63,531 nt of DNA from contig CAMOYJ010000001.1 in assembly GCA_946629975.1 (NCBI GenBank), positions 1 through 63,531 on the forward strand. Direction: 5' to 3'. The DNA is from an uncultured Alphaproteobacteria bacterium. GTDB taxonomy: Bacteria; Pseudomonadota; Alphaproteobacteria; RF32; CAG-239. Position numbers and translations under genes: made by a program. This document shows, piece after piece, positions 4,391-63,531 of the stretch (position 1 is its first letter; each line of letters begins with the position of its first letter). Under the pieces are notes generated by a model. It was not told where the DNA came from and did no database searches. It worked only from the letters and a program-made list of their open reading frames with translations.

Positions 4391-4717
4391 ATGAAACTGA
4401 ATAAACCATATACAAGTAAACAATACGCCGACTTGGCTGTTTATTGCAACGAAAATAATTGCCATATTGAAGATAAGGGCGATTATTTGGAAAGCGTTAA
4501 AAACCCGCCTTTGCCCGAGCCGACAGATGACGAGCAAAGACAAAATCGTGCGGCGGCGTATCAGGCAGAGGTTGACCCGATAACAGCGCATATCGAGCGT
4601 TTAAGAGATGAGGCAGAGCCTGACGAGGTAAAAATCGCCGAGCTCATTGCCGAGCGCACAAAAAAGGTTGAGGAAATTAAACAAAAGTTTCCGTATAAAA
4701 ACGGAGAGGAAAAATGA
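4391..4717 (+). CDS. Hypothetical phage protein (possible fibre chaperone)
   Basis: ATG at 4391 after ggaggag. Acidic, helical C-terminus. The function is inferred from position only. Confidence 0.45.
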   Translation: MKLNKPYTSKQYADLAVYCNENNCHIEDKGDYLESVKNPPLPEPTDDEQRQNRAAAYQAEVDPITAHIERLRDEAEPDEVKIAELIAERTKKVEEIKQKFPYKNGEEK

Positions 4718-4992
4718 TTAACGACATCAAAGTGGTTTTATTTTTGATAGCGGCGGCGATTGCTTCCGCTATCATTCGTTTTAAGAGCCTGACACAGCTT
4801 TTGATTGATGCGGTGTTGGGTTTTGTGATGGGGTATTCTTTTTATTTGCTCTTAGGCTTTTGGGTTGCAGACGGCGCAACAAGAAGCGGTTTTTGCGGCA
4901 TTATCATTTTATGCTCACGCCCCTTATACGACTGGGCAAATGCCTTTATTTTAAACAAACTGACAGATTTAATTGAAAAGAAAATCAAATGA
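4714..4992 (+). CDS. Holin-like small membrane protein
   Basis: 92 aa with three hydrophobic segments and a charged C-terminus. ATGA overlap with the upstream gene. Lies immediately upstream of the spanin-like pair. Confidence 0.5.
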   Translation: MINDIKVVLFLIAAAIASAIIRFKSLTQLLIDAVLGFVMGYSFYLLLGFWVADGATRSGFCGIIILCSRPLYDWANAFILNKLTDLIEKKIK

Positions 4993-5469: not shown

Positions 5470-6723
5470 ATGTTATCAAAAGCAGAGCTTCAAGAAGATT
5501 TAAATGATATTTGCGCACAAACAAAGGGGCGCTGGCTTTGCTATGATGATATTCACACCAAAAATTTGAATGCAGACACGACGCGTTATCTCAAAGAGCT
5601 AAAAAGGCTTGGATATTCTAAAACGAATTTGCTTTCAATGGGGTATTTGGATTTGGCCTATGGCGGCGGATTGGAAATCAGGCACCAAGAAGAATCAAAA
5701 GGGGCCGGCTATACACTCGACGGAAAAAACAACAACAAAAATAAATTAGTCGTTTTATCAGGTTTTGCAAGGCAAAACGACAGACATACGGTTTATCATG
5801 AAGCGGCGCATCTCTACCAGTTTGAATACAACATTTTCAACATTCGTTATCGCGGAGAATATGAAACATATCTCTCAGAAACGCACGCAAATACCTTTGC
5901 GGCAGCAGTGCTGTTGCTCAAAGCAAAAAATGTGTTTGAATATAAAAAACAAAGGCTTGCTCTTTTTGCAAACAATGTGAACATGGTCAATGACAAACGC
6001 AAAAAACTGCTCTATTACCTCTCTTTGCCGATAGAGCTGGAGATGGTAAAAATTATCAGAAAAGAAGGACGTGCGAACGTGCGGGCAAAATTTGAGAAAA
6101 AAGGAAGGCTCGATTTTAAAAAAATCGCTTTTTGGACGGCTGATTTGGTGCGAGAGCATGCCTATACAAAAGAAGAATTTGAAAAAATTCAAAAAGGTGA
6201 TTTTACGCTAAGATATGAATTGCTCAAGAAAAAGGCCAAGTCATATCGTGTTTTGGGCAGAGCTTTTAGCTTGCAACAAAAACTTCAAAAAACAGCGCAA
6301 AACAAGCGACATTACAAAATTGAAAAGCAAAGAATTGAAACAATAAAAGAAAAACTGAAGCCGCTGCCTGAAAAAAATAAGCAGGCGCAAATGATAAATG
6401 CGGCGTGTGCCCTTGATAATTTTCAAGTAAGATTACTTCAAGAATATGGAATTTTTGATGCGCTTTCAGATGTTGTGGACGGCGAGGTTTGCAGCGTGCC
6501 AGATAAATATAAACAAAATGCAAAAGCACTTGATGAAATCAGCGCAACATTTGAAAAAATGAAAACCATTTATCAAAGGTGGCAAAATGAGGCATATTTT
6601 CAAGATTTGGTTGATAATCTGCTCTTTATTGAAACGCGCGATGAAGTCTGGGCCTCAAAAGAAGAAATGAAAAAAAATCTTCAAAGAAGAGATTTTGAAT
6701 TTGGTCTTCAAAACGAAAGATAA
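5470..6723 (+). CDS. ImmA/IrrE-like (M78, DUF955) zinc-metallopeptidase-domain protein with a long Lys/Glu-rich C-terminal region
   Basis: HEAAHLYQ (HExxH) is followed ~25 aa later by SETHANTFAAAVLL. This matches the ImmA/IrrE pattern HExxH...ExxANxFAxxLL. Confidence 0.55.
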   Translation: MLSKAELQEDLNDICAQTKGRWLCYDDIHTKNLNADTTRYLKELKRLGYSKTNLLSMGYLDLAYGGGLEIRHQEESKGAGYTLDGKNNNKNKLVVLSGFARQNDRHTVYHEAAHLYQFEYNIFNIRYRGEYETYLSETHANTFAAAVLLLKAKNVFEYKKQRLALFANNVNMVNDKRKKLLYYLSLPIELEMVKIIRKEGRANVRAKFEKKGRLDFKKIAFWTADLVREHAYTKEEFEKIQKGDFTLRYELLKKKAKSYRVLGRAFSLQQKLQKTAQNKRHYKIEKQRIETIKEKLKPLPEKNKQAQMINAACALDNFQVRLLQEYGIFDALSDVVDGEVCSVPDKYKQNAKALDEISATFEKMKTIYQRWQNEAYFQDLVDNLLFIETRDEVWASKEEMKKNLQRRDFEFGLQNER

Positions 6724-11438: not shown

Positions 11439-12218
11439 CTAGAATAATACTTTGAGTTGAGCACCGAGCGTCATATCATGCTGATAATCGCTGCCACCCA
11501 AGAAGTAGTCACCATGAACACCAACAGCAACGGAATCTGTTAAGAAGTAATCAGCTTCGCCTTGCAAATACCATTGGTTAGCATTGTCACCATGTGTTAC
11601 AAAATCATAACGAACACCGCCGTCAAGAGCCCATTTGTCAAGTGTTTTGTGAACACCGGCAAAAACAGAATAGTCAATCACGCGGTCAGCTTGATCAATC
11701 GGTGAATCAAGTGTAAACATGGTATAAGGAACTAAGCCGTTGCCCATATCATAGCCAACTTGTGCTTCAAATTGGAGCTCTTTATACCAGTCATTATCCA
11801 TTTTAACACCGCCGATGTGGTGACCAAACCAAGAACTCGGCTGGAATGTGAAATAGCCCAAACCGACTTGTGTCAAAATATTGTCATAGCTATAGTTATA
11901 TTTTGCGCCAACTTCATAAGCAAAGTTATGCTCGTTGTTGTATTGACGGCTTGTCAAACGATCAAAATTAAAAGCGTTCATAATACCGCCGTAAACAGAG
12001 AAGTTGTCTGTGATACCGTAGGTTAACTCTTCGCTCAACGCAAAATTTTTGATTTGTTTAACATGACGCGCTTTTGTGCGAGACCATTCAATTTGTGTGT
12101 CAGACAAAAATTCGCCTTGACCGGGCAAAAAGAGCGACCCAGTAAAATCTCTTGCATGTGCTGCGCTAACCATCAAAGTTGCGGCAGCTGTTGTGAGTAG
12201 CATATTTTTGATATTCAT
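11439..12218 (-). CDS. Outer-membrane beta-barrel protein (family not recognised)
   Basis: Signal peptide ending SAAHA, alternating Gly/Tyr/aromatic beta-strand pattern, and a C-terminal ...LKVLF. Confidence 0.65.
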   Translation of the reverse strand: MNIKNMLLTTAAATLMVSAAHARDFTGSLFLPGQGEFLSDTQIEWSRTKARHVKQIKNFALSEELTYGITDNFSVYGGIMNAFNFDRLTSRQYNNEHNFAYEVGAKYNYSYDNILTQVGLGYFTFQPSSWFGHHIGGVKMDNDWYKELQFEAQVGYDMGNGLVPYTMFTLDSPIDQADRVIDYSVFAGVHKTLDKWALDGGVRYDFVTHGDNANQWYLQGEADYFLTDSVAVGVHGDYFLGGSDYQHDMTLGAQLKVLF

Positions 12219-12379
12219 GAATATATCCTTTCTGTTGTTTCAACAATCCGATGTTTGTCGGATACACTAAGGATACTGCCATAAAGTTGACGAAATGTTA
12301 AGATAAATATGTTATATATTCCACAGAATTAAACAGAAATTAAGATTTGAAAATTATAGTAGCTCCAAAGGAGAATACA

Positions 12380-12811
12380 ATGGACGAAGAATACATCAAA
12401 ACATTATCTGAAGAAGAAAAGATTGTTTTCTTAAAACTTTTTTGTGTGTTAATTAAAAGCGATAATGAAATTGATCAAGATGAAATTTCATTTTTGAAAA
12501 TGATTAGTGCAAAATATGGTGTGCCTGAAACAACAATTGTCGAGATCATTAAATCGGCAAACTCAATAGACGCTGTTCGGGAAGCAGAAAAAATTAAAGA
12601 TCGTTTGCATGCGCTGGAGCTTGTGAAAGAGCTTTGTTTTTTAGCAAATGTGGATGATAGTCTTCATGAAAATGAATTGGGAACAATTATCAACATTTCT
12701 CGCGCAATGCATGTTGAAGATGAAAAACTTATTTTAATAAACAGATTTGTTTTGGACAGCCTTATTTTATACAAAGCAGGGCGAGTGATATTGGAAAAAG
12801 AAAATGGATGA
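12380..12811 (+). CDS. TerB-like (tellurite-resistance TerB / DjlA N-domain-like) protein
   Basis: Two helical repeats carrying acidic D-x-E-I motifs (SDNEIDQDEISFL and VDDSLHENELGTI). ATG at 12380 follows aaaggag. Confidence 0.5.
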   Translation: MDEEYIKTLSEEEKIVFLKLFCVLIKSDNEIDQDEISFLKMISAKYGVPETTIVEIIKSANSIDAVREAEKIKDRLHALELVKELCFLANVDDSLHENELGTIINISRAMHVEDEKLILINRFVLDSLILYKAGRVILEKENG

Positions 12812-13160
12812 GGTAAAGTTAAAAAAAATTCTAAGGGGACAAAGAGGTTCTCTTGCTGAAGCGGTTGGAAATAAGCTTGCTTACTTAAAGAGCAGCCATG
12901 TTTTTGAAAAAGATAGTTCGTATATGCAAAGTTTTACATTGGATTTTGAAATACCAACCGCAAAAACTTTAACACTTGAAGAAGCATTTCAAGAGATTTC
13001 AGGGCAACCGATACACAACGTTCCTTCTGTGTCTGCACAATCAAATCCGCAAAGCGACAAAGCAATACCATCTAAAGGTATGTCAATGGCGGAAAGAATT
13101 GCGGCTTTGAGAGGAGCTGTCAGCTCTCCCTCGACATGCATGGGCTATCAAAGAAAATAA
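12804..13160 (+). CDS. Hypothetical protein
   Basis: Overlaps the upstream stop by 8 nt. No family recognised. Confidence 0.4.
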   Translation: MDEVKLKKILRGQRGSLAEAVGNKLAYLKSSHVFEKDSSYMQSFTLDFEIPTAKTLTLEEAFQEISGQPIHNVPSVSAQSNPQSDKAIPSKGMSMAERIAALRGAVSSPSTCMGYQRK

Positions 13161-13280
13161 CTATAAATTAATTGACAAAATCAAAAAAAGTTGATACAAA
13201 ACAAAGTATTGCTTTTTAAGTCTATGTCCAATCATTAAATATAAATTATGTAAAAAAATAAACCTCTAAAACAAGAAAAT

Positions 13281-60855: not shown

Positions 60856-61386
60856 ATGAAAATCACTTTGAAAAACGGACAAGAAGCCGCATTACGACGC
60901 ATCCGAGCAAAAGACTATGAAGATGTGATGACTTTTTTAGATAAATTTTCTCGCGGAAAGGGTGCTGTTTGGACACATCAATACCCGAACCAACCTAAAA
61001 AAGATAAACAAAAATCTGTTGAACATTATGAATCGGATGATGAATTGTTTGTTGGTGTTTTTGTGGGGAAAAATATTGTTGCGGAAGGATCCGTTCATCT
61101 CAAAAAGGTGGCAGATCCGTGGAGTGTGAAACAAGCAAGTTTCGGATTATGCGTGTTGGAAGAATACACGAGTATGGGCATCGGAACGCGTATGCTCAAA
61201 GAGCTTGAAAAGTGGGCGCTCAAAAGAAAGGTTCATCGTATTTTTGCAACCGTTCGCCACAACAATAAAAGAGCTTTGGGGCTGTATTTGAAAATGGGCT
61301 ATCAAATTGAGGGAACAGCTCGAGAAACAGCGTTTTTTGACAACGAATGGCAGCATGAATACCACATTGCAAAAATCATAAAATAA
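60856..61386 (+). CDS. GNAT-family N-acetyltransferase
   Basis: VLEEYTSMGIGTRMLKELEKWA...NNKRALGLYLKMGYQIEG motifs. Confidence 0.75.
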   Translation: MKITLKNGQEAALRRIRAKDYEDVMTFLDKFSRGKGAVWTHQYPNQPKKDKQKSVEHYESDDELFVGVFVGKNIVAEGSVHLKKVADPWSVKQASFGLCVLEEYTSMGIGTRMLKELEKWALKRKVHRIFATVRHNNKRALGLYLKMGYQIEGTARETAFFDNEWQHEYHIAKIIK

Positions 61387-61392
61387 ACAATC

Positions 61393-61419
61393 AAAAAAAA
61401 CAGCCCCATGAAGGGGCTC
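61393..61419. terminator. Hairpin terminator (strong on the minus strand)
   Basis: agcccc-atgaa-ggggct. The minus-strand transcript is followed by U8, whereas the plus strand lacks a U-run. Confidence 0.55.
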
Positions 61420-61425
61420 GTTAGT

Positions 61426-61536
61426 GGCTGCGCGGAGTGTACAATCTTCGAACTTTTAGAGCACCACCGTGCAGAAATAATTGCAGTTAAGGAGCAGATG
61501 CGGTATGTGGAAGAAAGACTCATAAAAAATGCCTCA
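61426..61536 (+). repeat. Conserved module M, copy 1 (GGCTGC box plus codon-like conserved segment)
   Basis: Its first 33 nt match 62469-62501 with one mismatch. The remainder is ~70 % identical to 62502-62579 in one reading frame. Confidence 0.7.
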
Positions 61537-61549
61537 CCGAAAAGATGAG
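61523..61549 (-). terminator. Rho-independent terminator of 61580-62143
   Basis: Minus-strand hairpin ctcatc-ttttc-ggtgag (one G-U pair) followed by a U-run. Confidence 0.55.
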
Positions 61550-61579
61550 ACATTAAATTATTCTCAACTACCTTTCATT

Positions 61580-62143
61580 TTACATCTCTCGACCATTGGT
61601 ACGAGTTTGATGGCCATTTTCTTGTGGCATATATGTATCTTTGACAGCGGTTTTAATTGTTAATATTTGTTCGTCATTTAAGCCAATTGCATGCCCAAGC
61701 TCCTCACCATGTTTCCATGTTGCTATCAGATATTTACAAATTGCTCTGTCTCCTGCATGACAGTATGTATCAGGCACATAATCTACGTATTCGTGACCAT
61801 CTTTAATATATTTAGTTTCATAACCAAAGCGAAAGAAATTTCGTTTCACTTTACTGTATACACCAGCTGTTAATCTGCCACCGTTTTTTTTCATTTCTAC
61901 CTGAATGGCTCTTCCTATAATTTCGGAATCTCTCGCAATAATGTCACACATATCAAAAGTTTTTATGTTATTTGCCAACTCTTGATCAGTACATTTATAA
62001 GTTTCAGAATCAATACTTGAAATAAATTTTTTTTGTTCTTCTAAAAATTTTTTCTTGTTAATTTTATCATATGCGAAACTGAAAGACTGCTCAATTTTTT
62101 CCTTCAGCGTATAATTAGGAGTTGGCATATATATTCCCATCAT
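61580..62143 (-). CDS. Hypothetical protein (cassette gene B)
   Basis: 187 aa. SD gaaagga before ATGATG, with its own TTGACA-17-TAAAAT promoter. No family recognised. Confidence 0.55.
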   Translation of the reverse strand: MMGIYMPTPNYTLKEKIEQSFSFAYDKINKKKFLEEQKKFISSIDSETYKCTDQELANNIKTFDMCDIIARDSEIIGRAIQVEMKKNGGRLTAGVYSKVKRNFFRFGYETKYIKDGHEYVDYVPDTYCHAGDRAICKYLIATWKHGEELGHAIGLNDEQILTIKTAVKDTYMPQENGHQTRTNGREM

Positions 62144-62193
62144 TTTATCCTTTCAAAATTTATCTAATACAAAGAATCACTTCTTATGTTCTC

Positions 62194-62222
62194 ATTTTAC
62201 CACCCTCCCGATATTTTGTCAA
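62194..62222 (-). promoter_or_regulatory. Sigma70-type promoter of cassette gene B
   Basis: The minus strand reads TTGACA, 17-nt spacer, TAAAAT. Confidence 0.55.
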
Positions 62223-62304
62223 TTTTTTTATGCAAAAAAACGATTTTTTTATTCAAAATAAAAATAAAGGGCTCTCGACGTGTTGTGAGAACCCTGTTCA
62301 ACTT

Positions 62305-62474
62305 GGCTGCTTTACCTGGACTGGGCTACGGCTTTTATCAAAAAAGCCTCGCCCGATCTTGTCGCGTGCCGACATTGCCGTCACGCACCGCGATTTCGAA
62401 CCGCTTGGTTCTTCACCATAGGATAAAATAGCCAACAAAAAAAGCACCGCAAGGGTGCTGTTTTCGTTGGCTGC
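62305..62474. repeat. Structured repeat E, copy 1 (four hairpins, bounded by GGCTGC boxes)
   Basis: About 93 % identical by eye to 63363-63531. Hairpins at 62323-62354, 62364-62386, 62398-62411 and 62430-62472. Confidence 0.85.
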
Positions 62475-62579
62475 ACGGAGTGTACAATCTTCGAACTTTT
62501 AAAAGCCCATCGCCTGGAAGTTGTTGCCATAAGAGAACAACTCAGTTTTGTTAGAAAAAGACTTATAAAAAATACCTCA
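62469..62579 (+). repeat. Conserved module M, copy 2
   Basis: See 61426-61536. It follows repeat E directly and has no in-frame start codon. Confidence 0.7.
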
Positions 62580-62596
62580 ATTATTAAAATTGAGGC
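62565..62596 (-). terminator. Rho-independent terminator of 62623-63273
   Basis: cctcaat/attgagg hairpin. The minus-strand transcript is followed by a U-rich run. Confidence 0.55.
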
Positions 62597-62622
62597 GCGA
62601 AATGTCCATAATAAAGAAAAAA

Positions 62623-63273
62623 TCACTTACCTTGAGATTTTTTGAATTTTGTTTTTGCAACAGATACGGCGATATTATTAAATGCTTTTGAATCGGCAAT
62701 TTTAGCGGCTGCTTTTTGAAGTTTTGGCTTATCTTCAAGTTTTTTAAGTTGCTCTTCTTTTTTCTTTTCAACATGTTGCTTAGCAAAATAAATTTTTGTG
62801 TCTTCAACACCATCTTTATCAAAATGTTTAATTCCGCCCTTTTCAGTCCATTCAAACTCTTTTTGTTTTGAATTAGGATAATATACACGTTTGGTTGAAT
62901 TACATTCGATACAATTTTCTAATTCATCAAAACGACAGAAAATCTCTCCTCCATCTGAGTTAGAATAATGAGATGATGACATTTTTCCGTTTTCATATCT
63001 GTATACGGATTTACTTTCCGAATAATCAGAACAAGAAAATGAGTCATATTCATCTTTTGCTTCATGAGTTAACAATTTTGAGAGTCTATCTTCCTGTTTT
63101 TTCCATGCTTCTTCGAATTTTTCTTTCAAAAGTGCTGGTGGTTCTTTTCTTTTTTGTTCTTTTGAAGATTTTTGATAACCATTGCCTGATGTGCCACGTC
63201 TTCTCATTCGAGATAAATTTGCAACCGTTGCAGCATTAGCCGCTGCAGTTGCTGCAGATATAATCACAACCAT
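62623..63273 (-). CDS. Hypothetical protein (cassette gene A)
   Basis: 216 aa with an Ala-rich N-terminus and Lys/Glu-rich regions. Has its own promoter. No family recognised. Confidence 0.55.
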   Translation of the reverse strand: MVVIISAATAAANAATVANLSRMRRRGTSGNGYQKSSKEQKRKEPPALLKEKFEEAWKKQEDRLSKLLTHEAKDEYDSFSCSDYSESKSVYRYENGKMSSSHYSNSDGGEIFCRFDELENCIECNSTKRVYYPNSKQKEFEWTEKGGIKHFDKDGVEDTKIYFAKQHVEKKKEEQLKKLEDKPKLQKAAAKIADSKAFNNIAVSVAKTKFKKSQGK

Positions 63274-63308
63274 ACTTTATTCCTTTCGAGATTCCAATTT
63301 ATGGTAAT

Positions 63309-63338
63309 AGTATAGCAGAAAACAAGCATTAAAGTCAA
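63309..63338 (-). promoter_or_regulatory. Sigma70-type promoter of cassette gene A
   Basis: The minus strand reads TTGACT, 18-nt spacer, TATACT. Confidence 0.5.
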
Positions 63339-63362
63339 TCTTTTTTGATATTTTTGATTAGT

Positions 63363-63531
63363 GGCTGCTTGAACTGGACTGGGCTGCGGCTTTTATAAAA
63401 AAGCCTCGCCCGATCTTGTCGTGTGTCGACGTTGCCGACACACACTGCGATTTCGAACCCCTTGGTTCTTCACCATAGGATAAAATAGCCAACAAAAAAA
63501 GCACCGCAAGGGTGCTGTTTTCGTTGGCTGC
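63363..63531. repeat. Structured repeat E, copy 2 (ends exactly at the window edge)
   Basis: Colinear with 62305-62474. The last ~75 nt look identical by eye. The window ends at the second GGCTGC box. Confidence 0.85.

Follow-up and report, generated by a model that had tools for sequence, protein, structure and literature searches.

How does a row of unrelated genes come to lie between conserved, structured repeats? The question is raised by the right end of a 63,531-nucleotide stretch of DNA from an uncultured Alphaproteobacteria bacterium (assembly GCA_946629975.1, contig CAMOYJ010000001.1; the whole stretch is called the window below), where positions 61393–63531 carry two minus-strand genes, A and B, embedded between copies of two repeats, E and M. 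An earlier note on this DNA described genes, promoters, terminators and both repeats at positions that were reproduced exactly or within a few bases, and compared the arrangement with recombination-built arrays such as integron cassettes and orphan toxin/immunity loci. The general idea held, as the array appears to be built by site-specific recombination and the identities of its core, of M and of a second relic, P′, relate the spacers to recombination sites. Both analogies had to be abandoned: IntI and attC-type sites are absent, and M derives not from a toxin gene but from a serine recombinase gene, of which it is the 3′ end, now detached. Most probably the repeats originated as attachment-site (att) scars of a phage-type serine integrase, bounding recombinase-less cassettes at a hotspot of the tRNA-Gln type. 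As a whole, the array would be a stack of remnants of mobile elements that lack the integrase, i.e. a hotspot of a known kind in an unusually compact, cassette-like form.

Repeat M and its parent gene

Repeat M is present in the window in two minus-strand copies, the middle one at 62468–62584 (including the core, 62474–62468) and the left one at 61425–61536 (core 61431–61425). They are identical at 80 of 111 positions (72%), while in the 34 nt adjoining the boundary, already reported as nearly invariant, only one position differs (33/34). Pattern matching on metagenome contigs and profile searching of GTDB genomes with the M peptide recovered related loci, which belong to uncultured Alphaproteobacteria of rumen and gut. 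On the antisense strand, 16 distinct copies of M can be aligned without frameshifts, giving the peptide G[CW]xxCT[IV]xxLLxxHRxE[VI][IV]A[IV]KEQLxYVxERL and then a stop codon. For the three codon positions, column entropy amounts to 0.57, 0.35 and 0.94. Single-site codon differences in the coding frame comprise 671 synonymous versus 589 non-synonymous ones, the synonymous counts being 70–305 in the other two frames of the same strand and 229–602 in the three reverse frames. Open reading frames (ORFs) upstream of the core at M share no conserved start; on the plus strand the middle M is start-less (GCTECTIFELLKAHRLEVVAIREQLSFVRKRL..., approximately 35 C-terminal codons of the recombinase), and the left M lies inside a 46-aa ORF (61408–61548) ending ...GCAECTIFELLEHHRAEIIAVKEQMRYVEERLIKNASPKR. 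Thus, the coding pattern combined with the lack of a conserved start marks M as what is left of a gene's 3′ end. As its source, a chromosomal target gene was considered and rejected, since the ORF has no upstream continuation at any M, recombinase relics excepted. A search for the full-length parent with a 46-aa profile returned only 9 short spurious ORFs, and the M DNA pattern gave 0 matches in viral contigs.

The parent was found later, via recombinase homologues. Sister contig L001 (GCA_003542415.1) contains the genes of the window and 5 kb of additional sequence, including a large unit beside its first M (M1). Via homologues of a 357-aa protein from this unit, a recombinase of 486 aa carrying Resolvase and Recombinase domains was reached; in contigs L024 and L025 it is directly followed by a second recombinase of 558 or 563 aa. 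The large serine recombinase (LSR) of L025 (563 aa, ORF 11532–13223) passes TGGCTGC and runs into antisense tRNA-Gln (13154–13227), as the LSR of L024 also does, and its frame at the core, ...ENPVQIGC, is the frame of M (GC[TA]EC...). An LSR gene located at the attL end and reading into antisense tRNA-Gln was registered in L024, L025, L031 and L032, and one or two LSR genes abut tRNA-Gln at the array heads of related contigs. The absence of a recombinase, pointed out in the earlier note, is therefore true of the window but not of related array heads, including that of a contig from the same sample: L024, where tRNA-Gln is followed by two LSR genes and defence genes, belongs to the same ENA metagenome sample as the window-like scaffold.

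Database homologues of the LSR (541–636 aa) have two kinds of C-terminus. Tails of the M type (...CTIFELQTLRNLREHRAEVLAIKEVLAYVREKLAA) are found in P0035, P0036, P0039, P0040, P0028, P0029 and others, one example ending ...LTSVQSGCPRCTIFELQTLRNLREHRAEVLAIKEVLAYVREKLAA; tails read from antisense tRNA (...CGCFTWTRTKIDGVRIRCPTIRR) are carried by P0033 and P0034, and further tRNA-like tails exist. Intact LSR genes with the M-type tail reside in phage contigs L026, L027, L028, L029, L033 and L034, between the early genes (RecT, YqaJ, SSB, Dam) and those for lysis and tail, and of the IMG/VR contigs three show this tail, whereas in two the frame continues into tRNA-Gln(TTG). In L026 the DNA reads M-GGGCAGCCA-P′ in one continuous attP. 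Taken together, the intact tailed LSR in phages and the read-through at the tRNA place attP inside the recombinase gene, so that M would be detached from it by integration. Comparison of the frames thus shows that M corresponds to the last 32–45 codons of an LSR gene on the opposite strand. Phages with the intact recombinase also have a reverse transcriptase gene (RVT_1) beside the tail genes (L026, 5628–6719; L027, 11066–12157, minus strand), which suggests a diversity-generating retroelement.

The cassette of gene B retains both arms, i.e. M and, on the other side, 14 LSR codons preceding the core (P′ relic, 62262–62303, minus strand). On the plus strand this relic reads ...NKGLSTCCENPVQL|GC, the C-terminus of the L024 LSR being ENKGLSACCENPVQF|GC, and its peptide is that of the recombinase C-termini of L024 and L025 before the core. 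On the array strand the relic appears as a terminator-like hairpin followed by a T run. A P′ stub is also present in the Phage_30_3, L014 and L019 cassettes. Judged from their sequences, the P′ relic and the end of E would form an attL-like junction, and the middle M would be the P arm of attP, forming an attR-like junction with the next E. The catalogue of junctions contains all expected types: attB-like (tRNA|hairpin of E and E|E), attL-like (tRNA|P′ and E|P′), attR-like (M|hairpin of E) and attP-like (M|P′). The reconstructed attP takes about 50 bp with the centre ...TGTACAnnnnnnn[G/C]CAGCCAnnnTGnACAGG... and, by our own reading, has TGTACA-type motifs symmetric about the core. Such symmetry fits a serine-integrase site with a putative crossover within the shared CAGCC. 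Cysteines flank the crossover in the LSR C-terminus (..ACCENPVQFGC|AEC..; L024 13110–13150, L025 13100–13160, window 62262–62303), and integration swaps part of a possible CC-x7-C-x2-C motif for residues encoded by antisense tRNA.

Anchor at tRNA-Gln and turnover between genomes

Units of the array are delimited by the 7-nt core [G/C]CAGCCA, which is found in the window at 63531–63525, 63368–63362, 62474–62468, 62310–62304 and 61431–61425 and terminates every unit of L001. The core is the 3′ end of tRNA-Gln, CCA included, and is common to the tRNA, the ends of E and the ends of M. Arrays in L005, L006, L007, L013, L014, L015, L018 and L019 start at tRNA-Gln(CTG), the 3′ end of which reads ...TTCGAGTCCAGGTGAAGCAGCCA, and its last 17–19 nt recur as the end of E. 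In the window the right E matches 17 and the middle E 18 of the 19 terminal nucleotides of tRNA-Gln(CTG). The units are, in this way, bounded by direct repeats of tRNA-derived sequence, 17–19 nt long in E versus 6–7 nt in M. Five distinct loci, belonging to different metagenome-assembled genomes (MAGs), have repeat E (150–165 nt) immediately after tRNA-Gln, and this association, together with the copy of the tRNA 3′ end, speaks against the alternative, also raised earlier, that E is a generic dispersed repeat. Neither E nor M has further copies in the 63.5-kb window (0 chance matches expected), and pattern scans for E gave 0 matches in viral contigs and 0 in GTDB genomes. Metagenome match L008 was discarded as a chance match in a high-GC phage.

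The prediction that the array continues past 63531 was borne out by L001, where the order is dinB-like gene, 357-aa gene, 70-aa gene, M1, E1, Phage_30_3-family gene, M2, E2′, E2, gene A, M3, E3, gene B, M4 and GNAT gene. What this contig adds to the window, before it ends at the dinB-like gene, is a divergent copy of E, a Phage_30_3 cassette accompanied by M and E copies of its own, and another, larger unit. The core at the window edge appears in L001 as the end of the divergent copy E2′ (4660–4807), located after the M of the Phage_30_3 cassette, and the hairpins of E2′ differ from those of other E copies by compensatory changes. As to the array running off the window, it does go on in L001, but the window edge itself is a contig end. 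It coincides with the end of the matching ENA rumen-metagenome scaffold, inside E, and since both end at the same base, the assembly was evidently broken inside E. The source organism comes from sheep rumen sample SAMN02144231 (ENA ERZ28612951). Positions 5883–5960 of L001 are a run of N exactly at the hairpin region of E3, which, along with contig ends within E and tRNA-Gln, means that the repeats break short-read assemblies.

Related arrays contain from one to several units with mostly unrelated and unannotated cargo, and in all genomes compared the unit boundaries coincide exactly with the core. Between L006 and L001, a block of 1.5 kb composed of E, the Phage_30_3 cassette and M shows 97.6% identity. 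This block is the sole unit of L006, placed directly after the tRNA; in L001 a large unit with M at its end precedes it, and two more cassettes follow. Large units vary in cargo (MmeI-type and type I restriction-modification systems, helicases, AbiTii, DinB). Based on the differing contexts of the Phage_30_3 block and the variable cargo of large units, the locus is neither static nor syntenic, and the comparison of content between genomes, which the earlier note had proposed, revealed differences by whole units. Large units with shared att arms (L024 as a whole, L025 1–9600, L012 668–9926) carry defence cargo, with MmeI-family and type I restriction-modification, ResIII helicases, T5orf172, AbiTii, WYL and RhuM, and additionally encode small serine or tyrosine recombinases of 184–190 aa. 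In L005 another short repeat, TTACCGTCATTCTGAGGCGATAGCCGAAGAATCC, occurs twice in the array (about 1545 and 2545 of the reverse complement), both times right after a hairpin and a GGCTG motif, at the usual place of the E body.

Under the proposed mechanism the locus would be the distal part of an integration hotspot that starts, in related genomes, at tRNA-Gln(CTG). The arriving elements would be temperate phages, and defence islands derived from phages, that are found in uncultured Alphaproteobacteria of rumen and gut and have an LSR with attP within the 3′ end of its own gene. Crossover presumably takes place inside the shared core, i.e. the last tRNA bases including CCA. After integration attL would consist of the tRNA end or its copy followed by the last LSR codons, and attR of M, the detached final 32–45 codons, followed by the old downstream flank. 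The cassettes of the window would be such units stripped of the recombinase and nearly all else, so that only a P′ relic (in the gene B cassette), a promoter, one gene, a terminator and M remain. Repeat E would normally follow tRNA-Gln and end in the copy of its 3′ end; each E may therefore offer an additional attB-like site, which would make units alternate with E. E may be a conserved tRNA trailer or an old scar serving as a source of such sites, and its copies may act as landing pads. It also seems plausible that cassettes devoid of LSR are still movable in trans by a resident or incoming LSR, and that loss of the M tail alters the enzyme.

Cassettes of the window and their cargo

Read along the minus strand from the right, the array opens with the core GCAGCCA (63525–63531), which at the contig edge is the end of an upstream unit cut by the assembly break. 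Next comes the right copy of E (63362–63524; nhmmer 180 bits), a candidate attB-like (B-type) half-site with a terminator-type hairpin at 63516–63500, a body with two more hairpins and the 3′ end CAGTCCAGTTCAAGCAGCCA. Gene A (62623–63273, 216 aa) is preceded by a promoter-like site, TTGACT-18-TATACT at 63309–63338 with TG before the −10 hexamer, and followed by an intrinsic terminator (62574–62596) and the middle M. The middle E (62304–62467) has its hairpin/terminator at 62459–62443, the 3′ end CAGTCCAGGTAAAGCAGCCA and the core at 62310–62304. Beyond the P′ relic lies the module of gene B composed of promoter, 5′ untranslated region (UTR) and Shine-Dalgarno sequence (62144–62261, with TTGACA-17-TAAAAT at 62222–62194), then gene B itself (61580–62143, 187 aa), its intrinsic terminator (61528–61554) and the left M. 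A hairpin with a T run (61393–61418; hairpin 61418–61402) follows right after the last core as a B′-type flank. It is of the same kind as the hairpin opening E, and with it the array ends, facing the convergent GNAT gene (60856–61386, plus strand). The promoters of genes A and B are the two best promoter-like sites of the region, where the total number of such sites does not exceed chance (6 found versus 6.0 expected), and 7 terminator-like sites were registered in the array region versus 1.6 expected. In line with the earlier proposal, both cassettes are equipped with a strong promoter-like site and a hairpin terminator of their own.

The module of about 110 nt upstream of gene B (TTGACAAAAAA..GGGGG.GGTAAAATG..ATAAGAAGCGATTCTTTG..AAGGAGA) is shared with five cassettes of other genomes that have unrelated ORFs; together its carriers are the window, L005, L013 (two cassettes), L014 and L019, i.e. 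at least four genomes. By sequence it looks like a mobile regulatory cassette. It is reminiscent of the promoter-stem-loop modules of T4-type phages, and cassettes next to att sites resemble phage morons, which are self-contained promoter-gene-terminator units.

Gene A had been taken for an orphan, but its family comprises 37 clusters at 50% identity. In its AlphaFold2 model (pLDDT 77.7) a disordered N-terminus is followed by one helix, by beta-hairpin repeats forming a single-layer sheet and, at the C-terminus, by three helices. No Foldseek match was obtained at E ≤ 0.001, the nearest shapes being MORN, OspA and Rhs repeats. The single-sequence model of gene B is unusable (pLDDT 43). Neither gene has a match in Pfam, PHROG, NCBIfam or PADLOC, and searches of GenBank phage records with both proteins and with the DNA of E and M gave none. 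The last ~80 residues of gene A (62623–62880, minus strand) recur at the C-terminus of proteins of 427–585 aa, i.e. the cargo is modular, and two cargo proteins of L013 (290 and 443 aa) are 64% identical in their last 69 residues. A cassette of L015 (1873–2397 in array coordinates of the reverse-complemented locus) encodes a bacterial protein matching serum amyloid A (PF00277, E = 4e-19). The 357-aa protein of L001 (1341–2414, minus strand) is encoded at that end of the large unit which adjoins M, next to a gene for ~70 aa. Of 5.8 billion proteins just 8 are homologous to it, among them those in L009/L021/L022, L020 and L023, and Pfam, NCBIfam, PHROG and PDB gave no sequence match; inspection by eye revealed a C-terminal coiled coil and the motifs FYCLTT, LHIHGVI and NYITKY, which resemble motifs of rolling-circle Rep proteins.

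Alternatives, significance and precedents

Several observations weigh against the origin of the repeats as att scars. Both tRNA-Gln and LSR are missing from the window and from sister contig L001, any link to an LSR island relies, for this genome, on separate contigs, and no contig connects the head with LSR and tRNA-Gln to the array of the window, whose own contig stops short of the array head. The gene A cassette carries M without a recognisable P′, as its left junction (E|CTAATCAAAAAT...) contains no LSR relic. An in-frame stop in one M copy is what one expects of a decaying relic rather than of a maintained site. Neither a circular form nor an empty site was observed for the cassettes of the window. 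Finally, plain integration does not multiply E, so that several copies need an extra assumption (tandem native E, E capture on excision or homologous recombination), and covarying hairpins are not needed by a passive scar.

These hairpins lead to another view of E. Its copies in the window are identical at 159 of 170 positions (93.5%, in agreement with the ~93% estimated before) and consist of the terminator-type hairpin, two others and a helix that closes the structure, in which the conserved 5′ segment UGGCU..UUUA.CCU pairs with the tRNA-like 3′ end. Compensatory changes affect 14 of 45 predicted pairs, a score reached by 0 of 500 shuffles and far above that of slid controls. With the position directly after tRNA-Gln in five loci, this would suit a small structured RNA gene linked to the tRNA, for instance a processed trailer RNA with a tRNA-like 3′ end, for which the role of recombination target is secondary. 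We regard this primary function as rather doubtful: nothing in Rfam corresponds to E or M at gathering or permissive thresholds, there is no convincing promoter between the tRNA terminator hairpin and the E body, and M, the P′ relic and the cassettes are left unexplained, although such an RNA is compatible with the scar origin. E as a tRNA-like gene was rejected, ARAGORN finding no tRNA in it and no convincing acceptor or T arm being seen by eye. The opening hairpin is bracketed by inverted repeats AGCCA...TGGCT, in some copies AGCCAAC...GTTGGCT, and in others by AGCCACTAA/TTAGTGGCT or by none at all. The longer bracket is one mismatch away from the attC R″/R′ consensus, and unrelated cargo between conserved structured spacers is typical of cassettes moved by an integron-like or other tyrosine recombinase, with E and M as folded attC-type sites. 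Such a system is nevertheless highly improbable here, where no integron integrase was found in the window or any related locus, the sole tyrosine-recombinase domain seen belongs to a 190-aa protein within a defence island, promoters are present in the cassettes themselves, units are bounded by the tRNA-derived core and not by GTTRRRY, and M is recombinase coding sequence.

A different mover could be the 357-aa protein, if it were an HUH-type rolling-circle enzyme transferring cassettes as single-stranded DNA via the hairpins of E. Its Rep-like motifs, the covariation in E hairpins and the fact that its homologue adjoins M or the small gene beside it in 6 of 6 contigs, as far as the contigs reach, conform to this idea; yet it is scarcely probable for a gene that lacks database matches, has so few homologues and is missing from most arrays, especially as all junctions are accounted for by the LSR model. 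It is also possible, though we incline against it, that the cassettes are inert debris, i.e. decayed immobile remnants of successive prophage or island integrations, and that arrays differ by deletion, duplication and homologous recombination between E or M copies rather than by continuing site-specific exchange. The in-frame stop, the start-less middle M, the gene A cassette without P′ and the lack of circular junctions are in line with decay, and the L005 unit flanked by two Ea copies is also expected from Campbell-type homologous recombination. On the other hand, boundaries fall exactly at the core in every compared genome, one unit occurs in different array contexts at 97.6% identity, and the ~34 nt of M adjoining the core are conserved (33/34 versus 72%) as for a half-site still under selection.

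Opposite to debris, the att scars of the phage-type integrase might belong to a working integron-like platform. It would have to combine four features: tandem copies of the structured E may be kept downstream of tRNA-Gln to serve as multiple attB landing pads; units of ~1 kb may be selected integrase-less cassettes (P′ stub, shared promoter module, variable ORF, terminator, M); incoming phages or islands may shuffle them in trans; and the swap of the Cys-containing M tail for an antisense-tRNA peptide on integration could set the direction of the reaction. All four being true jointly seems unlikely to us. A self-splitting arrangement of this type is, according to a review, exclusive to Archaea (PMC8371274), and in bacteria was only suspected in Dehalococcoides (PMC3146451); here a bacterial serine integrase with attP in its own 3′ end is documented, and the detached tail is conserved at the protein level. 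The pattern of repeats and cassettes thereby receives a concrete, testable mechanism. If single-gene units are mobilised in trans, tRNA-Gln would become, in these rumen bacteria, an integron-like platform for the exchange of accessory and possibly anti-phage genes, and the reconstructed attP/attB pairs are candidate new tools for genome engineering with large serine integrases.

Integrons are defined by IntI, attI and Pc at the head of the array, attC sites with R″/R′ cores RYYYAAC/GTTRRRY and mostly promoterless cassettes. The present arrays share with them the head-to-tail order of unrelated single genes between structured, recombination-associated spacers, but have no IntI, attI or attC, use their own promoters and involve a serine enzyme encoded by incoming elements; in the window region and related loci no IntI was found, the recombinases at array heads being proteins with Resolvase and Recombinase domains. 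Rhs and contact-dependent inhibition (CDI) toxin/immunity arrays, in which the conserved fragment between cassettes stems from the toxin gene and stands before a variable toxin tip and an immunity gene, are different as well, since M is recombinase sequence of the opposite strand and each cassette has one gene; the cargo showed no matches to toxin or immunity families. Staphylococcal cassette chromosome mec (SCCmec) and pseudo-SCC elements (ccrAB), as well as cis-mobilisable elements (CIMEs), form tandem composites by accretion; units lacking a recombinase retain the flanking att repeats there and are movable in trans or in cis. For CIMEs and pseudo-SCC the accretion principle is summarised in PMC3146451. 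Pairs of serine recombinases (two tandem LSR genes in L024 and L025) and integration at the 3′ end of a conserved gene are common to SCCmec and our loci, but the target here is a tRNA gene rather than rlmH or fda, and attP is inside the recombinase gene. Matches to NCBIfam CcrA, CcrB and CcrC are far below the family cut-offs, so the LSRs are not Ccr orthologues.

Tycheposons of Prochlorococcus are tRNA-anchored islands in which successive integrations push older elements outward, leaving scattered partial tRNA copies and degenerate remnants, with cargo and defence functions; they mostly use a specific clade of tyrosine recombinases and replication modules (bioRxiv 10.1101/2020.12.28.424599). 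The tRNA anchor is the same, whereas the hallmark genes differ and nothing like M, E or standardised single-gene cassettes is described there. "Suicidal" integrases of the Sulfolobus spindle-shaped virus (SSV) type, tyrosine recombinases of archaeal viruses and plasmids that the review calls exclusive to Archaea, have attP with tRNA-derived sequence in the integrase gene; integration partitions this gene, leaving fragments at both ends of the element, and favours trapping and accumulation of elements (PMC8371274). An attP inside the integrase gene and splitting of this gene on integration are shared features. However, the LSR, with its Resolvase and Recombinase domains, is not an archaeal Phage_integr_3-type tyrosine recombinase, and while in SSV-type systems the catalytic part is separated, the bacterial serine enzyme loses only its last 32–45 residues and gains an antisense-tRNA tail.

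The closest precedent is provided by the ssrA-specific genomic islands of Dehalococcoides, which are arranged in tandem downstream of a stable-RNA gene and bounded by direct repeats of its 3′ end (PMC3146451). Serine recombinases dsiA/dsiB are located at their attL end, where dsiB overlaps attL (McMurdie et al. 2011, PMC3146451), and the authors suggest that dsiB is perhaps fully functional only on the circular element; islands without recombinase were read as cis-mobilisable elements (PMC3146451). Tandem units at a stable-RNA gene, repeats of its 3′ end and serine recombinases at attL are thus common to both systems. They differ in the target, which is tRNA-Gln here and tmRNA there, and in the hosts, which in our case are rumen and gut Alphaproteobacteria, at least some of the carriers being phages. 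The detached tail M is conserved, under purifying selection, and also present on intact tailed proteins, whereas the C-terminal portion in Dehalococcoides was reported as divergent. Finally, in the arrays described here units are shrunk to ~1-kb single-gene cassettes with a shared promoter module and are accompanied by an extra structured repeat, E, which supplies attB-like copies.

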